Assembly: GCA_951406725.2 (NCBI GenBank)
Contig: OX597836.1
Location: 45,632,001-45,696,000, forward strand
Length of the DNA stretch: 64,000 bases
Reading direction: 5' to 3'
DNA from: Octopus vulgaris
Lineage: Eukaryota
Positions within the stretch are counted from its first letter, which is position 1; each line of letters opens with the position of its first letter. The notes below the pieces were generated by a model, which was not told where the DNA came from, did not search any database, and worked only from the letters and a program-made list of their open reading frames with translations. This document shows positions 3,349-63,109 of this stretch, in pieces. Both the position numbers and the translations under genes were made by a program.

Positions 3349-3435
3349 AAACACACACACACACATATAATGTAAGAAAATGGAGAGTTTGAATACAGCC
3401 AAAGCAATTTATTTACATATTTGTCGATTACGTAA

Positions 3436-3522
3436 GACCTACGATCGTTTCAATATCCGCCTTCATTCATTTTACAATTAACAATTGCATTATGAATTCA
3501 GAAGACAAATTTCTTCAGGGTC
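3436..3522 (-). ncRNA. type I hammerhead ribozyme motif (intact core)
   Basis: minus strand: GACC-CUGAAGA-60 nt stem II-GAAAC-GAUC-GUA-GGUC; stem III ACGAUCGU is palindromic. Confidence 0.8.
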
Positions 3523-3643
3523 AAAACCGACAAATTACTTTTACATCCAAGTAGACTGAGACTTCATTACAGGTTCTGTAACGAACTTTCAATCTATTAG
3601 GATGTAATAGGATGTAAAAGTAATATGTTAATATGTTGATATT

Positions 3644-3732
3644 GACCCTGAAGAGATTTCTGTCTTCTGAATTCATAATGCAATTGTTAATTGTAAAACG
3701 AATGAAGGCAGAGACTATATCGATCGTAGGTC
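3644..3732 (+). ncRNA. degenerate hammerhead (GAAAC box lost)
   Basis: GACC-CUGAAGA...uauauc-GAUC-GUA-GGUC; mirror of 3436-3522. Confidence 0.55.
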
Positions 3733-4007
3733 TTACGTAATCGATAGCTATGCAAATAAATTGATTTGGCTGTATTCATACTCTCCATTTTCTTATATTA
3801 CTAAATTTGTGTCCCCATATGTCGAATCAGATGGAAACATCTATACAGACTACTAGAATTCCAAAATGTGTACAGTACCAGTGTATTAAACACTAATACC
3901 TACACTAGAGGACTGAATTCTGGTAAATTCAGAGATATATGGATAAACCGGAGGAATCTTGACTGTAAGACATTGCTGGAAAGAGTAATTTATTTCTTTA
4001 CTAAACC

Positions 4008-5469: not shown

Positions 5470-6980
5470 TTGAAGTCAAAGAAACCAAAAATAACTGGTT
5501 TACGGAAGACCATCAGTGATGTAATGATGCTTATTGCATGCAGACAAGCAAATCACTGTATGTCCAACCAACAGAAAGTAAAGAAGGAGATAGAAATGAT
5601 GTTTGGAGACAGCAAAAAGAGGACACTCACTTCCAAACTGATTACCCTCAAGCAGGAGCTAAAAGCAGTCAGGGAAAAACTCCGACATCAGAAGAGAAAA
5701 ACTGAGAGAAGAACAATAAACAAAAAGTTTAACAGCAACCAGGCAGCAGTGTACAGAGGCAAGAGAGGAGGAGCAGTAACTATCACGGGAGCTCCTTCAC
5801 GAAAAGACATAGACTCCTTCTGGAGGAAAATCTGGAGTGAAGAGAAGGAATTTAGCCAAAATGCTTTGTGGCTGGAAGAAATCCGAAAAAGTTATTGCTC
5901 CTTCGTTACATCCAAGACATACAACATTGATGGTGAAACACTTGCAACCGTGTTCCAGAAACTCCAGGATGGAAAAACACCTGGAAGAGATTTGATTGCT
6001 GGATATTGGTACAAGAAGCATGCCAGAATTAATGTATAAGATATATACAGCATGTTTAAACCTCTTCCTCCAGGACCATTGTGAAACCAGTAACATTATC
6101 ACAGCAGAACAAGCAGCTGGGAAGAAGGGAGTCTGGGGATGTACCGAGCAATTGTTAATCAACAAAATTGTGATGTCAGAGGTGCGAGAGCATAGTAGGA
6201 ACCTAGGTTCAATATGGCTAGACTACAAGAAAGCCTTTGACTCTGTTTCCCATTCATGGACGTTAGAAGTTCTTCAACTTGCTAAGGTTCCGGTGAGCAT
6301 AGTCAAAGCCTGACTTCATCGTGGGCCACCATCTTGAAATTAAACACAAAGAGTGACTGTATTATCACCAATAGAATACAGTATCGCAAAGGCGTCTTCC
6401 AAGGAGACAGCCTCTCTGTGATGTTGTTTATACTTTCTGTAAACCCCTTGTCATTCGTGTTAAGGAAGTCTGAAGGATATCTCACTGGTTCACAAGGAGA
6501 TAGGAATACCATAATTACTCAGCGTTTCTTTGTGGATGACTTAAAACTTTACATGAAGAATATGCATGAGATGAAAAAGAGCCTCGACCTATTTACGACA
6601 TTCTCAAATGATGTAGAGTTGGAGATTGGTCAGGATAAATGTTGTTATGTGGTTGTGAAAAGGGGGAAGACTATAAACCAGACTAGTAACATCTCCATCA
6701 TTGATTTGACTGTTTCCCCTGTATCTGACGAGGAATGTTACAGGTATCTGGGGGTGGATGAAAATATTTCTTACAATGGCACCTAAAGAATATTACAGAC
6801 GAATAAAGAAAATTTCTACCTCAGAACTCTTTGCATTCAATAGAACAGTGACCCACAATGTGTTTGCAGTGCCTGTACTTATACTACTTATACCAACATT
6901 TGGGCTGCTTGATTGGACGCTTCATGAGATCCGAGCCATTGATGTGAAAACCCGAAAAATACTAACAAGCACGCATAATT
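5470..6980 (+). mobile_element. R4/Dong-clade non-LTR retrotransposon RT remnant
   Basis: GCTEQLLINK, IWLDYKKAFDSVSHSW, GVFQGDSLS, FVDDLKLY, YRYLGV; frameshifted. Confidence 0.85.
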
Positions 6981-7295: not shown

Positions 7296-7842
7296 AAGGC
7301 TGGGAAACCCCATAGTATTGGTGTAACTGTAATATTACCAGCGGTATCTGACATAATTTCATCACTTATGAAGCAAATTGCTAATGAAACTACTTGTAAG
7401 ATTCCTTTATTTAACTCATCAGTTTTAAGGTGCATTAATGAAATGGCTAAGGTGTGGAGAAGCAATTAATAGCCAAATTACAAGTAAAGAATTTTCCTCT
7501 TCAACCCGAGATATTAAAACGTATGTTTGATTTTTGGATGGTAATGGATTCAGAGAGGTAATACGTTTTGCCAGGCGTCTTAAACAGACGCTAAAGGCAA
7601 AACAATTTTCAAAGACGTTGTAACTTATTTCGAGGAAAATAATTCCCCTCAAAAATGTAATAACTTGCGCTAAGAAAGGTCGGTGCTCCAACCATGATTG
7701 GCAAATACAAAGATTTTTTTAGAAATCTGTACTTGAAATATTTTGCACACGCTGTGTGATGCACTGGTAACACTTAGTTGCAAAACAATGAAATGGACGT
7801 CTGTACGATGCCCTTGATATTATAATAAAAGTTATAAACTAT

Positions 7843-10104: not shown

Positions 10105-10387
10105 TGGTTGTATAAAGTCAACATAACGTGACAGTCCCGTAGAGGGAATTACACCACCGCTATATAGTCCTAGGAAGCATCGACGCTTCCTGTCGGCTTT
10201 CACACATTTCCTGTGTCCTTATATTCGCAAAGGGGAGGCAAGCACCCCCACCAGCTAGGACTAGCAACATGAATACATGCATGTTTCTGAGTATTGCCCG
10301 TCATCAGTTCAGGGTAGCGTGTCCCCGCTAGCGGTGATGCTTACTAAGCCCACGGGACTGTCACGTTATGTTGACTTTATACAACCA
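10105..10387. mobile_element. 283 bp element with perfect 36 bp terminal inverted repeats and internal HHR
   Basis: 10105-10140 is the exact reverse complement of 10352-10387. Confidence 0.75.
10270..10311 (-). ncRNA. minimal type I hammerhead motif
   Basis: UGAA-CUGAUGA-cgggcaauacuca-GAAAC-AUGCAU-GUA-UUCA; palindromic ACAUGCAUGU; weak stem II. Confidence 0.7.

Positions 10388-14618: not shown

Positions 14619-14620
<2 letters not shown>
14168..14620 (+). mobile_element. SINE family A, full length
   Basis: tggctgtgtgg A-box-like, ggttcagtccc B-box-like, internal (TA)n(TG)n, tail ggcggtgctccagcatggccgcagtcaaatgactgaaac. Confidence 0.92.
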
Positions 14621-14668
<48 letters not shown>

Positions 14669-14696
14669 GAGAAAGAAGCAACAAGAATGGATTAGT

Positions 14697-14787
14697 TTTT
14701 AGTACAATTGTTTCATACAAAGACAGGCTTTATTACAAGTTGCAAAAATTGCAGCAGATAAAAGTGTCCTGTACTCATCAGCTAAAA
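14697..14787 (-). ncRNA. type I hammerhead motif
   Basis: mirror of 15301-15391. Confidence 0.85.
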
Positions 14788-15300
14788 TACATATGAGTTC
14801 TCCAAACATCTTAGTGGGTGAGGTTATACTCATGAAATATTGGAGATAATTTCATTAAAGGCAGATATAGGTTGCAAACAGATTTCCAAAGTTCCTTAAT
14901 GATGATGCACAGTCTTATCACAGATTCTTAAAAGCTTATTAGTTTCAAAGAGAAGATGAATTAATCCGTAGTGTAGATTTAAATTTCCAGAGATGTGAGG
15001 AGGATGGTGCACAGACTTATCACAGGTTTTTAAAAGCTTATTAGCTTCACAGAAAAGGTGAATTAATCCATAGTGAAGATTTAAATTTCCAGCGATATGA
15101 GGAGGAATTTCATACTCACAGACGATGAATTTAAATTAAATGAAACTAAAAAGCTTTTAAGAATCTGTGATAAGACTGTGCATCATCATTAAGGAACTTT
15201 GGAAATCTGTTTGCAACCTATATCTGCCTTTAATGAAATTATCTCCAATATTTCATGAGTATAACCTCACCCACTAAGATGTTTGGAGAACTCATATGTA

Positions 15301-15391
15301 TTTTAGCTGATGAGTACAGGACACTTTTATCTGCTGCAATTTTTACAACTTGTAATAAAGCCTGTCTTTGTATGAAACAATTGTACTAAAA
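15301..15391 (+). ncRNA. type I hammerhead motif
   Basis: UUUUAG-CUGAUGA-60 nt stem II-GAAAC-AAUU-GUA-CUAAAA; predicted cut after 15385. Confidence 0.85.
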
Positions 15392-15532
15392 ACTAATCCA
15401 TTCTTGTTGCTTCTTTCTCGTTTATAATCACCCCACATTACTGTATGGTTAACACCATATAGTTTTTCTGGTGCATCTAAGTTAAGTACCACATTCAAGT
15501 AAATTCATTGGAATTTACTTGAATCTTAATTG

Positions 15533-15586
<54 letters not shown>

Positions 15587-15679: not shown

Positions 15680-17456
15680 TATTCGGCCAGTAGACCATCA
15701 GTATTTAACTTGAAACACCACCAATTTCTTTTCAATACTTTTGGTTGTTAGGGGAGGAAGCTGAATATGTTGCCTTCGTAAATTCGTATTTTGGTGCTTT
15801 TGTCAAGTGTTGATGATTTCCAAATTGAGCTTAACATACCGAACGATTGGCTGGCTTTGCTGATTCTTGTATTTATTTCATGAATGCAGTCTCCATCTAT
15901 TGTTATTTTGGTGCCTAGATAGTTAACTTCGTCAGCATTTTTTGATTGGTTTGTTGTTCAAAGTCACATTGTCAGCGTCTGTTATATTTTTACAAAGAGG
16001 GTACTTCTCGTTGATTTTGACACATATGGTGTTGGCTATTTGACTAAGTCTTTCAGATTTGTTTTCTAACTCTTGAGGCATGTATGAGAACAAACAAATG
16101 TCGTCTGCATAATGTAAATTTTCTAATTGAGTTGTGTTCCAATTTATACCTCGTTTATATTCTTCTGTCGTTCTTTGCATTAACCAATTCGCTGCCAGTG
16201 AAAATAAGATTGGTGACAACATGCATCTTTGTTTGACTCCGGTTTTGATTTCAAACGGATCTGTCAGTTTGTTATTGTGTATAACTTGACAATAGAAGTT
16301 TTTTTATACAATAACCGATTCAATCTTGACTAATTTGTGTGGGAAACTATAGTGTCTGAGAATCTCGGTGAAAGCTATCGAAAGCTTTTTCAAAGTCAAC
16401 AAACAACATGCACAAAGATTAGTTCTATTCATTGCATCGTTTGAGTATTTGGCGACTTACAGAAATATTGTCAATAATGATTTTCCTTTCCTGAATCCAG
16501 CTAGCTCTTCGTGCTGTGATGTGCTGTAATATGATATGGGTGAATATTTCACTGGTAATTGAAAATAGAGTGGTTCCTCTCCAATTTTTACAGTTTGAAG
16601 CATCATCTTCCATTGGTGATTTCACAAGTCCTTTTTTCTGGCTGTTCGGTATTTCCTTATTTTGTAAAATTTCTTGTAAAATAATTGGTAATGTTTTGAC
16701 CTCTGCTTTAAGCATTTCAACAAAAACTCCATCTAATCCTGATGACTTGTCATTTTTTAATTCACAGATAGCTTTTATGACTTCGTTTTATGTCTTTTAT
16801 GATTTCTCCAGGGTTGATTTCCCAATCCTTGTCCGCTTCTTTTATTTCGGTAGAGATTATGGACTCTGGGCGATTAAGGATAGCTTGGAAATGGTTCTTC
16901 CATCGTTCTAGTTTGACTTTATCACCTGTTATTTTGATTACATCTGTACTTTGTACAGGTAGATCATAGTATCTTCCTTCATATCAACTTCGCTATCTTT
17001 TCCTCATTTTGTACAGTGATCTTAAATCTTTACGTTTAGCGGCTAATCCAGCCTCTTCAGCCAATTGGTTTCTGTATCTACGTTTGTCATTCCGTACAGA
17101 TTTCTTTACTGCCATATCCTCATTCATATATTGCATCTTATACTTTTCTATGTTTGGTTGATGTAGAAGTGAGAAGTTTCTTCTGTTTTTCTTTCCGTTT
17201 ATTCATGATTTTCCATGTCTTTTGATATCCATTCATACCTGTTTGTTTTTCTTTATCCAATAGTTTCCTTTTTTTTAGCTGAGTCTGTAAGGATTTGGTC
17301 GAAATTGTCAATTGTTACATTCTCACTAGTTTCTAATGCACTGAAACGATTCTGGAGAGATATTTGAAACTGTTTTATTTATTGTATAATCACTCAATTT
17401 GGTCACATCAAAACGCTGATTTGTAGTGGTTCCTGTGCATGATTTGTTTAGTTTGA

Positions 17457-55380: not shown

Positions 55381-55947
55381 AAAATCTTTTAAATTAAAAA
55401 AACAAAACTTATATAGTTATTTATTTCTATTTGTTTATTTATCTGTGTATTTTATTTACTATGTTTTCGGTTTTGTTTATATATTGTAACCAGTTTATGG
55501 GGATCCTCTACCGTCATATGTTGTGGTATGTGCTAGTGTTCCATTCCAGTTTCCTATTCAGGCTAGGTTTATCTTCTATTATGTGTGTAGCTTCTGTAAT
55601 TTGTCTGATTGTTGCATCTGTTCTATGTGTGGACAATATTTTAACTTTTATGTTGTTGATTAATCCCTCGTGTTTCTGTAACAAGACAACGACATACGTG
55701 GGGGAAACGGCACGAAGCATAGGAGAGCGGGTAAATGAACATTGGAGAGAACTTAAGAAAGGTAAAAGCTCATCGATTCTGTACCAACACGTCGAACAGA
55801 AAGATATTCTCGAGTGAAAATAATTGTTGTATTAAAAATATATAAATAAATAAATATAAATATGTATAAAAATATATGTAAATATATATAAGTATAAATA
55901 TATAATGTATATGACAGTTTAAATGTTTTGAATTAATTATTTAATGC

Positions 55948-56037
55948 ATCTTACGATCGTTTCGCAGAAGAGTTGTCCCTATAATGAAATCCTATATTGA
56001 TAAGAATTTATAGACAACTCTTCTGCTCTTCAGAGAT
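55948..56037 (-). ncRNA. type I hammerhead motif with 14 bp perfect stem II
   Basis: AUCU-CUGAAGA-GCAGAAGAGUUGUC...GACAACUCUUCUGC-GAAAC-GAUC-GUA-AGAU. Confidence 0.88.
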
Positions 56038-56669
56038 ATAAAAAAATGAATTTTTGTATAACATATCGAATGATATTTTAAAAAAAAATTTGAAGTAAAA
56101 CTGTAAAATGGTGTTTGTTTGAAATGTAAAATTAAAATTAAAAATTACTGCTTCTGATGAGAGTCTTTAAATCCTTATATATTTCCTTGGTTATTCTTCT
56201 GCAATAATCCATAATATTCATATGTAAAACCCATTATATTATCTTGTATTCTAAATATAGTTCATATAGTTAGTTTAGAAATGGGGAATTTGCATTTACT
56301 TTAGTATGAGAATCTTGAAATTCATATGTCTTCTTGGTAATTCCTCTGTAGCAATCCATAATAGTTTTGTATAAAATTCATTATATTTTCCGGTAATCCA
56401 AATATAGTTCATAATACAAAATCAAATTATATTTTAAATTATACGCGAAGTTATAAAATAATTTTATAACTTGCTACAGAGGAAGTACCAAGACAAAAGT
56501 ATTATGGATTGCTACAGAGGAATTACCAAGAAGGCATATGAAGGCAAATTTCCCCCGATTCATTCATTTTATTCCATATCAAAAGTTAATAATTATAAAT
56601 GTTTGAAATTTGATATCACAATTTCTCAAAATATAAGGTGCATCTAAAGAGTTTATATTTAATAATGAT

Positions 56670-57507: not shown

Positions 57508-58740
57508 TATGCCATGTACAAAAAGAAGCTTTGAAACTGTCTGAATTTGAAAGAGGCCGCATTGTAGGTCATTCTGAAAGCGGACATTGACAGCGTATAA
57601 TCGCAGAAAACCTTGGGATCCCGCTTTATCTTCTATTATGTGTGTAGCTTCTGTAATTTGTCTGATTGTTGCATCTGTTCTATGTGTGGACAATATTTTA
57701 ACTTTTATGTTGTTGATTAATCCCCCGTGTTCCTGTAACAAGACAACGACATACGTGGGGGAAACGGCACGAAGCATAGGAGAGCGGGTAAATGAACATT
57801 GGAGAGAACTTAAGAAAGGTAAAAGCTCATCGATTCTGTACCAACACGCCGAACAGAGGGGAAGGAGTTCACATCAGCTTGTCCAAATCAACCAGGGCCC
57901 TCTGACAGGACCCTTCTCTTTGTGAGGAGAAGTGTGGAGGATAATCCTCGTTGCAAGGCCTCTGACATAGCAGAACAAGTTGATGTCAGTCCCAGAACAG
58001 CTGTCAGGTATCTCCACAAAATTGGTTACTATGGCAGAGCAGCAAGAAAGAAGCCACTTCTTCGACCAACCAACACCAAGCGGAGAAAAGATTGGGCCAC
58101 TGAGATAGTGGAGAGGCCAATAGTATTTTGGGGCGCTGTCATAGTCTCTGATGAGTCCAGGTTTGCTGTATTTCCTGACAGTGGTTGAGTGTGGGTCTGG
58201 AGACTGTGATCAATAATTTAATGTGTAAAGATTGTAGCCAACAATGAAACACAACAGTTATTCTACGATGGCCTGTGTGTGTGAGGGAAACATAAACTCA
58301 AATAAATATTTGTCCACATTGCGGAAAGGACTCCTTCCAATCTTCTCCAGTGGTGAAATGATTAAACAGGACTCTTTATTTATGGAAGATGGAGCTCCTT
58401 GCCACAAATGACCCAAGATTTGTTGAATGAGAATGACATTAAAAAGCATCTATGGCCAAGCAAGTTACCAGATATGAACTCTATTGAACACTTCTGGGAC
58501 ATAACGAATAGGTCACTTCATAGAAAGAACAAGAAAGCATCTTCAATGTCAGATCTTTTGAGATTACTGCATGAAACTTGGCAAGAAATTCTGCAATCAA
58601 ATATTTATAATCTGATCAGTAACAAGCCCAATAGGGTCCTTGCATTGAAAGATGCAAAGCATAACAAATGCCTAACCGGTAAAAAGAACTTTCACCTAAT
58701 TAAATACACTCTCCCTTACTTAAATTATTTTGTCAGCATT
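57508..58740 (+). mobile_element. Tc1 transposase remnant
   Basis: LSEFERGRIVG, AARKKPLL, SDESRF, FMEDGAPCH, WPSKLPDMNSIEHFW. Confidence 0.88.
57625..57857. repeat. ~232 bp copy of 55568-55800 embedded in the Tc1 ORF
   Basis: 3 substitutions by eye; same inversion junction. Confidence 0.9.
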
Positions 58741-61678: not shown

Positions 61679-61700
61679 CAACAGGATATCCAGAGGTAAT

Positions 61701-61776
61701 GCAGTACGATCGTTTCAAGCGACTCCATTTAATGGAACAATGCAACCAATATCAATGCAGAGCAATCCTCAGCTAC
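61701..61776 (-). ncRNA. hammerhead motif, stem II base degenerate
   Basis: GUAG-CUGAGGA...GAAAC-GAUC-GUA-CUGC. Confidence 0.6.
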
Positions 61777-61802
61777 ATAAATACATAGAATTAAATTAAA
61801 TT

Positions 61803-62679: not shown

Positions 62680-62761
62680 TTTTCGACAGCTGTTCCGGTG
62701 GAATTTTGTTGATGTATCTGTAGACTACATCATAGAATATTATCCACCGTCTTCAGGTAAA
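62680..62761 (-). ncRNA. degenerate hammerhead motif
   Basis: CUGAAGA-CGGUGGA...UCCACCG-GAAC (one A short)-AGCU-GUC. Confidence 0.6.
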
Positions 62762-63109
62762 ATTTTAAACAGGTATAAATAGAAGTGATAATAACTTGAT
62801 AATGAATCCAAGTAAGACTTTGCGTAAGTGGTATTTTATGAAATAACACTCGAATTTATTGAGAAAGCAGGAGTGTCTGTAAGGGACATGCAAGAAGCAA
62901 GGGGATCAAACGACTCTATTATTTGAAAAACAGTTATCTTAATTAGTTTATTAGCCAAACAGGATATGAGGACGTAGAAAGGACACAGACAAGCTATAGC
63001 CAATAAATGTCTCATAGATCATTAAAGCCCAGAAGGAAAACACCAGACTTGCAGAAAGTCGTAAAACTGTTATCACTTTTTCTCGCACATACACACTCAC
63101 ACATGCATA

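Follow-up and report, generated by a model that had tools for sequence, protein, structure and literature searches.

Penelope-like elements (PLEs) have a characteristic anatomy, with a hammerhead ribozyme in the pLTR, an inverted truncated copy, an optional tail and microsatellite targets (PMC8557442, PMC11167929). Their minimal hammerheads (Cervera 2014, PMC4209133) are of type I topology, with CUGANGA and GAAA boxes, a stem I of 4-7 bp, a tiny palindromic stem III and no evident loop-loop contact, and they occur as many divergent families per genome, mostly as single truncated copies or close inverted pairs. The hammerheads described here share these properties, a loop-loop contact being judged by canonical pairing, and differ in stem II. 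A helix II of 7-8 bp is termed large in that study, and the longest stem II region across 44 of the ~56 rows of its alignment is ~23 nt, while the region is 49-63 nt in the long forms described here, two to three times the usual length.

In canonical hammerheads helix II is ~4 bp because loops I and II touch (PMC4209133, PMC6155905), and in natural hammerheads without that contact the length of helix II varies (PMC13725137). For PLE hammerheads whose stem III is a short palindrome, cleavage is weak and takes place in dimers (PMC4209133, PMC6765202), and that of an Anolis PLE hammerhead requires the protein of the element (PMC11167929).

Three further systems are close. The hammerheads of Hydra-clade PLEs (PMC8557442 File S2) share (TA)n targeting and a type I ribozyme near the 3' end, and they occur in Octopus; their stem III resembles that of two motifs found here, with cores at 36349 and 33023. 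They differ in having 11-26 nt between the boxes in 26 of 26 rows, and mostly other stem III loops. PLE-X1_sMoe of Selaginella (same file) has a 9-bp stem II with a 35-nt loop, 53 nt in all, and provides a printed precedent for the length. It is, however, one EN-less plant family with a 28S rDNA target and another stem III, and appears there as a table entry marked as deviating, not as a recurrent form. In the non-LTR retrozymes (PMC7229834; Li et al. 2026 preprint), which are animal repeats with a relationship to pLTRs, the hammerhead is likewise of type I and its palindromic stem III is short. Retrozymes differ in their canonical loop contacts and head-to-tail tandem units (PMC7229834), and we found no such units with a hammerhead in the 64,000-nt stretch of Octopus vulgaris DNA analysed here (the window).

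In Octopus vulgaris, PLEs of 190 families account for 6.83% of the genome (PMC13282606 supplement), and the main text of that repeat annotation does not mention ribozymes. In the running text of the literature searched, PLE hammerheads are nowhere described as having a recurrent stem II of 50-60 nt, and provisionally we take such a recurrent form to be absent from print. The long forms are predicted ribozymes, a variant of a known ribozyme in a known class of element. As both the chemistry and the element class are known, what is gained is the variant and a blind spot in searches, not a new system.

The predicted ribozyme at 15301-15391 and its insertion

By pattern and pairing script the sequence at 15301-15391(+) is a type I hammerhead, with the boxes and stems listed in Table 1. 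Its stem II region fills the gap between CUGAUGA and GAAA exactly and is closed by seven consecutive pairs; further out there is a C-A mismatch between 15337 and 15345. Stem III has 2 bp and a palindromic AAUU loop, making an 8-nt palindrome in all. Cleavage is predicted to occur after 15385. The inverted twin at 14697-14787(-) carries a single base change that gives C-G in place of the C-A mismatch.

Table 1. Coordinates of the hammerheads and associated features in the window. Hammerheads are named in the text by the position of the core where one is given; z compares the fold of the arm alone with dinucleotide shuffles.
Feature	Position	Strand	Detail
Putative Penelope-like insertion	14666-15534		869 bp, two copies head to head
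(TA)n run	14620-14665		left flank of the insertion
(TA)n run	15535-15583		right flank of the insertion
Tandem repeat	14901-15106		two 102-bp copies, non-coding upstream part of minus copy
Optional 3' extension (tail)	15426-15534	+	from copy ends in public contigs
Stem I, 5' strand	15301-15306	+	6 bp with 15386-15391; RF00163 alignment agrees
Catalytic box C3-A9	15307-15313	+	CUGAUGA, intact
Stem II region	15314-15373	+	60 nt; basal helix, internal loops, distal hairpin
GAAA box, stem III and loop, GUA triplet	15374-15385	+	GAAA at 15374-15377
Stem I, 3' strand	15386-15391	+
Inverted twin hammerhead (core 14781)	14697-14787	-	60-nt stem II
Hammerhead, other family (core 3518)	3436-3522	-	60-nt stem II (z -5.0), loop 3 GAUC; damaged inverted twin, core 3648(+)
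Hammerhead (core 38041)	38034-38117	+	51-nt stem II (z -4.6), loop 3 AAUU; identical inverted twin, core 37672(-)
Hammerhead (core 56033)	55947-56038	-	63-nt stem II (z -6.7), loop 3 GAUC; 15 consecutive pairs at start of stem II
Hammerhead (core 61772)	61699-61778	-	49-nt stem II (z +0.2), intact boxes and stem I; no clear basal stem II, fold not above shuffles
Relic (core 62756)	62680-62762	-	53-54 nt stem II (z -3.9); GGAAC instead of GAAAC, stem I gone, loop 3 AGCU
Relic (core 35508)	35503-35620	+	89 nt between boxes (z +0.1, no fold signal); stem I mismatched, loop 3 not palindromic
Short form (core 32695)	32691-32736	+	19 nt; AC-AAUU-GU stem III as in long forms
Intermediate form (core 36349)	36343-36405	+	31 nt (z -3.0), different stem III; inverted twin, core 36292(-)
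Intermediate form (core 33757)	33750-33814	+	30 nt, weak stem II; stem I 7 bp; stem III insert an 8-nt palindrome
Short form (core 31031)	30993-31037	-	17 nt, downstream of GIY-YIG C-terminal remnant; second, damaged copy, core 54976(-)
Short form	10270-10311	-	13 nt
GIY-YIG remnant split by inversion	55517-55802	N half +, C half -	PF01541, E 0.0045, 17.7 bits

The 5' side of stem I and the adjoining sequence (15295-15306), and likewise 61773-61785(-), are pyrimidine-rich, end in UAG and abut the first box, resembling a splice acceptor. The intron of Penelope in Drosophila virilis likewise ends at helix I, on its 5' side (PMC4209133).

The ribozyme lies within an insertion composed of a minus-strand copy (14666-15140) and a 5'-truncated plus-strand copy (15141-15534), whose arms 14666-14947 and 15141-15422 are 99.3% complementary. 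In other copies the loose ends before 15141-15155 are, by eye, similar to the upstream sequence of the minus copy. In 32 and 8 contigs from two public runs the element ends at ~15426 against (TA)n, which is 41 nt beyond the predicted cleavage position, and the inverted arm also terminates at the matching place. The copy in the window continues to 15534, and this tail of ~110 nt is longer than the 30-40 nt reported for PLEs (PMC8557442). The locus is probably inert, as it retains no open reading frame and has one hammerhead on each strand; the opposed orientation also means that the twins could not form a dimer within one transcript.

The surrounding window is AT-rich and contains numerous microsatellites and a U6 gene, together with SINE-like repeats and pieces of LINE, Helitron and Tc1-type elements. 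The U6 snRNA is a full-length copy at 33403-33508(-) (106.8 bits), 240 bp from the hammerhead 33757. There is a Helitron Rep remnant at 43755-44303(-) (PF14214, E 2e-37), and non-LTR reverse transcriptase remnants (PF00078) are found at 5996-6783(+) and 15935-16303(-); the fragment 6286-6783 of the former has 41 relatives in a search.

Recurrence, length and detection of the long forms

We searched the window for a core followed by 45-70 nt and GAAAC-N4-GUH, using 100 shuffles of the window as control. There are seven matches against a shuffle mean of 0.01, and none of the 100 shuffles reaches seven; the same pattern with a gap of 8-38 nt gives one match. Two of the seven are the inverted twins of 15307 and 38041, so that the matches represent five intact families (3518, 15307/14781, 38041/37672, 56033 and 61772). 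All five have both boxes and U16.1-H17 in type I order; the relics 62756 and 33023 do not, the second box of 62756 being damaged and the first box of 33023 having three mismatches. Stem I has at least four pairs in all seven matches (six by script, one by eye), compared with 1 of the 120 metagenome matches listed for a similar pattern (at least 120 exist) and 0 of 18 loci in viral contigs. These viral (18) and metagenome (at least 120) loci are regarded as chance matches and served as a negative control.

A wider scan that required stems I and II gave 11 motifs, compared with 0.1 in 60 block shuffles. Together with five families that its rules exclude and that were added by eye (61772, 62756, 35508, 31031/54976 and 33023) it yields 13 families, with stem II lengths of 10, 13, 17, 19, 30, 31, 49, 51, 54, 60, 60, 63 and 89 nt. 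Seven further cores (41381, 27741, 56154, 58148, 6725, 16739 and 43978) have no matching second half.

The lengths given in the original prediction are borne out. For the long forms they are 60 (3518-), 60 (15314-15373), 51 (38041+), 63 (56033-) and 49 nt (61772-), and those of 53 or 54 (62756-) and 89 nt (35508+) are also correct, but belong to relics. The short regions are 13, 17, 19 and 10 nt at 10270, 30993, 32691 and 33023, the last again a relic. The contrast drawn between long and short forms was therefore right in its lengths, but it overlooked the forms of 30 nt (33757+) and 31 nt (36349+/36292-). Six families fall within 49-63 nt, with P = 0.07 under a log-uniform null and 0.30 under a uniform one. 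A distinct mode at 50-63 nt is thus possible, not established. Of the structural subclass that had been proposed, a real and recurrent long arm, mostly a single interrupted helix, stands; its status as a separate class is not established (P 0.07-0.30).

A stem III of the form AC-N4-GU is present in all seven long families and in one of six shorter ones (Fisher P 0.005). Since it is common to all the long families, the long arm looks like a trait of related elements, and this probable relatedness weakens their standing as independent cases.

The published descriptor for minimal hammerheads allows a stem II of 3-7 bp with a loop of 3-10 nt, ~26 nt at maximum (PMC4209133 supplement), and that for bare cores allows 7-17 nt between the boxes (PMC8557442). 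The long forms, at 49-63 nt, lie outside the former, as they do outside the criterion of a 3-8 bp stem II and 3-10 nt loop, and 9 of the 13 families in the window exceed the limit of ~26 nt. Numbers of hammerheads in animal genomes are obtained with such descriptors, and these numbers, like statements that an element has none, may be too low for similar genomes.

The Rfam model RF00163 has a 4-bp stem II and a 6-nt loop, unlike the long forms, yet 15301-15391 and 38035-38116 both align to it over the full length, loop II being handled as an insertion. The scores are 20.3 and 30.2 bits respectively, with a gathering cut-off of 34. At E <= 10 the 63-nt form 56033 and the 31-nt and 19-nt forms are not listed, and no hammerhead in the window reaches the gathering score (three of the seven long families were also scanned singly). 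The expectation that short-stem models would miss the long forms thus holds for the published descriptors, but stem II length as the reason why Rfam misses them is not supported, because two long forms score better than short ones that go unlisted.

A custom model (R1) was built on an alignment of five families, with 3518 held out. This held-out 60-nt form scored 26.2 bits, the 30-nt form 33757 scored 27.5 and the 19-nt form 32695 scored 22.9, while decoys reached 23.8 bits among 100 of the 120 metagenome loci listed. The comparison of Rfam with a custom model that had been suggested as a check therefore gave no class signal, the held-out long copy scoring no higher than the 30-nt form. We conclude that what R1 captures is the core, with no general feature of the long arm. 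It revealed no further long hammerhead in the window, and the 89-nt form 35508 is absent from its hits. A candidate at 7329-7428(-), scoring 19 bits, was rejected for want of a proper stem III or stem I.

Identity of the element

The long hammerheads probably belong to the pLTRs of PLEs, judging from the anatomy of the loci. In the five intact long families a palindromic loop 3 (AAUU or GAUC) is carried on a stem III within the 1-2 bp of published PLE minimal hammerheads. Truncated copies meet at an inverted junction at 14666-15534, 37316-38272 and 3368-3800, and there is a junction also around 36349. A TA or TG run lies within 200 nt downstream of 11 of the 16 hammerheads, compared with 19% of random positions, counting twins separately.

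The assignment is drawn from anatomy because no open reading frame lies beside any long form. A Pfam scan of the 150 longest of the 547 frames in the window found no PLE reverse transcriptase or GIY-YIG coding beside the long forms, as expected if these are truncated. GIY-YIG remnants are found only upstream of the short forms 31031 and 54976, and are the sole direct trace of Penelope-type coding. The score of the remnant at 55517-55802 (17.7 bits) is below the PF01541 cut-off of 22.6, and a protein search with its C-terminal half gave no match. A 233-bp section of this inverted GIY-YIG junction (55568-55800) recurs at 57625-57857 with 98.7% identity, inside a Tc1-type transposase remnant.

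Nature of the long arm

The arm alone folds far better than dinucleotide shuffles in four of the seven long families (3518, 38041, 56033 and 62756; z -3.9 to -6.7), and there is no fold signal in 15307 (z -0.45; twin -1.7), 61772 or 35508. In an alignment of five families, 89.8% of 49 cells in stem I, stem III and the basal part of stem II are paired, with 5 of the 10 pairs altered on both sides, compared with 25-52% paired in slid structures; the alignment structure was derived from those same five sequences, which favours pairing.

The long arms had been described as sharing no obvious sequence, and neither the custom model nor a k-mer test contradicts this. No k-mer of 4-7 nt is enriched, relative to shuffles, among the six long arms in the range 49-63 nt (P 0.48-0.98), the closest to an excess being 5-mers present in at least three arms (P 0.052). 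The motif UGCAW, which the eye picks out in three arms, occurs no more than expected by chance. No common apical or internal loop was found among the long arms. Watson-Crick pairing of stem II with the sequence up to 40 nt beyond stem I is not above chance in any of the six arms (P 0.09-0.99). For a contact between loops I and II we found no Watson-Crick match in the flanks above chance and no common loop motif, within a test that covers canonical contacts.

Copies of the element elsewhere bear on whether the arm is a property of the family. Contigs from four of 24 public sequencing runs, with three organism codes among them, were aligned to 15107-15534 (428 nt) at 80% likeness, giving 2093, 767, 535 and 36 matching contigs per run, a high copy number. 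Variants were taken from 40 of 68 rows, unphased, and the short contigs would hide larger indels. In these rows 0 of 19 positions in the boxes and stem III are variable, with no variant in the CUGAUGA box, and 1 of 12 in stem I. In stem II 14 of 60 are variable, compared with 24 of 289 in the flanks (P 0.002), and the only stem II indel listed is of a single nucleotide, with no joint listed. The 60-nt arm is therefore a trait of the 15307 family and not the decay of one copy.

Selection on the fold of the arm in this family is likely. In the four runs the share of A at 15345 is 46, 12, 28 and 0%, and that of U at 15337 is 53, 14, 65 and 0%. The share of A is never above that of U, which fits C-G, U-G and U-A pairs, so that the C-A mismatch looks private to the copy in the window, as far as unphased data go. 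With the changes that co-occur in run X4, possibly an RNA run, and that were placed on the same two contigs by inference from a common depth value, the arm has a folding energy of -18.6 kcal/mol (z -3.6), with P 0.012 relative to 8 random class-matched changes. The majority DNA variants combined give an arm that folds at -9.9 only, and the 15 stem II variants listed, when introduced one by one, preserve the fold no better than random changes of matched class (P 0.30).

We favour the explanation, with a probability of about 0.65, that the long forms carry a length-tolerant structural arm inherited within one clade of PLE type I minimal hammerheads. In one lineage stem II would have grown into an interrupted, AU-rich hairpin of 49-63 nt (~20-25 bp). 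A stem III of 2 bp would be too weak alone, and two copies in a tandem precursor could pair through the 8-nt palindrome; alternatively, as published PLE hammerheads suggest, the element's protein may assist folding. By analogy with the same ribozymes, the RNA would be cut after GUH. If there is no contact between loops I and II, as we infer here, only the base of stem II need close the junction, and the distal part of the arm would be free to lengthen and to drift in sequence provided it folds back cleanly. The length would become fixed in active master elements and then be inherited, and several of the long-arm families probably come from one clade. With six families at 49-63 nt the length could itself be under selection, but an inherited arm does not need this.

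The likeliest alternative is that the arm is a functional module kept at ~20-25 bp, either a docking site for the RT-endonuclease protein of the element or a ruler for folding, dimer formation or the start sites of reverse transcription. Six of 13 families lie within 49-63 nt without likeness of sequence, and in the 15307 family the length is constant, yet stem II is the most variable part (14/60 against 24/289, P 0.002). The shares at 15337 and 15345 fit pairing in four of four runs, the X4 set folds at -18.6 kcal/mol (P 0.012), and the dependence of the Anolis hammerhead on protein (PMC11167929) would suit a docking site. However, the lengths show no significant mode (P 0.07-0.30), and common ancestry of the families is probable; the arms have no apical loop, internal loop or k-mer in common; one family with the same stem III (32691) has an arm of 19 nt; and conservation of the fold is equally expected if the arm must merely spare the core. 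We therefore consider a functional module unlikely, and it is similarly doubtful that the long-armed form, which makes up 7 of the 13 families in the window and escapes published descriptors, is the predominant hammerhead in a major PLE clade here with the arm a selected module. If the arm were such a module, with for example binding of the RT-endonuclease switching on cleavage, it would give a handle on the purpose of PLE hammerheads, and PLE clades thought to be free of hammerheads might carry a long-armed form. Natural forms that have this stem III in common but differ in arm length provide a ready comparison for the role of stem II in PLE biology.

It is improbable that the long forms are the 'missing' hammerheads of Naiad elements, overlooked through a limit on the distance between boxes. 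No canonical hammerhead is reported for Naiad, which targets (TA)n (Craig 2021, PMC8557442), and that source gives eight 'half core' cases, two from cephalopods, in which 35-50 nt separate the boxes. In Naiad_Esco the first box is ~45 nt ahead of a GAAA (PMC8557442 supplement), and the long forms have long non-coding DNA upstream, like Naiad 3' UTRs. Against this, GAAA precedes the CUGA box in Naiad_Ovul and Naiad-3_Dst, two of the three half-core 3' ends checked by eye, and stem I of Naiad_Esco is, by eye, unpaired; none of these three 3' ends forms the long-armed motif. Four stem III motifs gave no hits in the PMC8557442 supplement, searched on one strand of its wrapped lines, and no Naiad coding trace adjoins the long forms in the window. 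In the consensus 3' ends of Naiad_Ovul and Naiad-3_Dst, GAAA precedes CUGA by ~25-45 nt and hairpins lie close by (PMC8557442), and these reversed boxes are possibly a permuted hammerhead.

That each long arm arose by accident in one dead copy, through insertion or fold-back duplication after integration, and was never present in a working ribozyme, is very improbable, and for the 15307 family largely refuted: 35508 (89 nt) and 61772 lack a fold and the window has many fold-back palindromes (among them 3368-3800, 32985-33125 and 56321-56542), but hundreds to thousands of contigs with three organism codes span the 60-nt arm with only a 1-nt indel listed, both twins of three insertions have the long arm, and intact cores stand beside four long arms.

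Some features of individual hammerheads are recorded here in their own right. The palindrome at 32985-33125 surrounds the relic 33023 (10 nt between the boxes), which has a Hydra-like stem III. The stem II region at 38048-38098(+) contains an AUG and three codons followed by a consensus splice donor, and an intron beginning there would strip the second half of the ribozyme from the spliced RNA. A start codon or splice donor as a general feature of stem II was discarded, 38041 being by eye the sole long arm with both. The same insertion contains an exact 85-bp direct repeat, 37316-37400 and 37851-37935, at its left edge and inner junction, which suggests a template jump during integration. Finally, the 10270 hammerhead lies within a GC-richer unit of 283 bp (10105-10387) that has perfect 36-bp terminal inverted repeats and folds as a long rod; this could be MITE-like or retrozyme-like rather than a plain pLTR.
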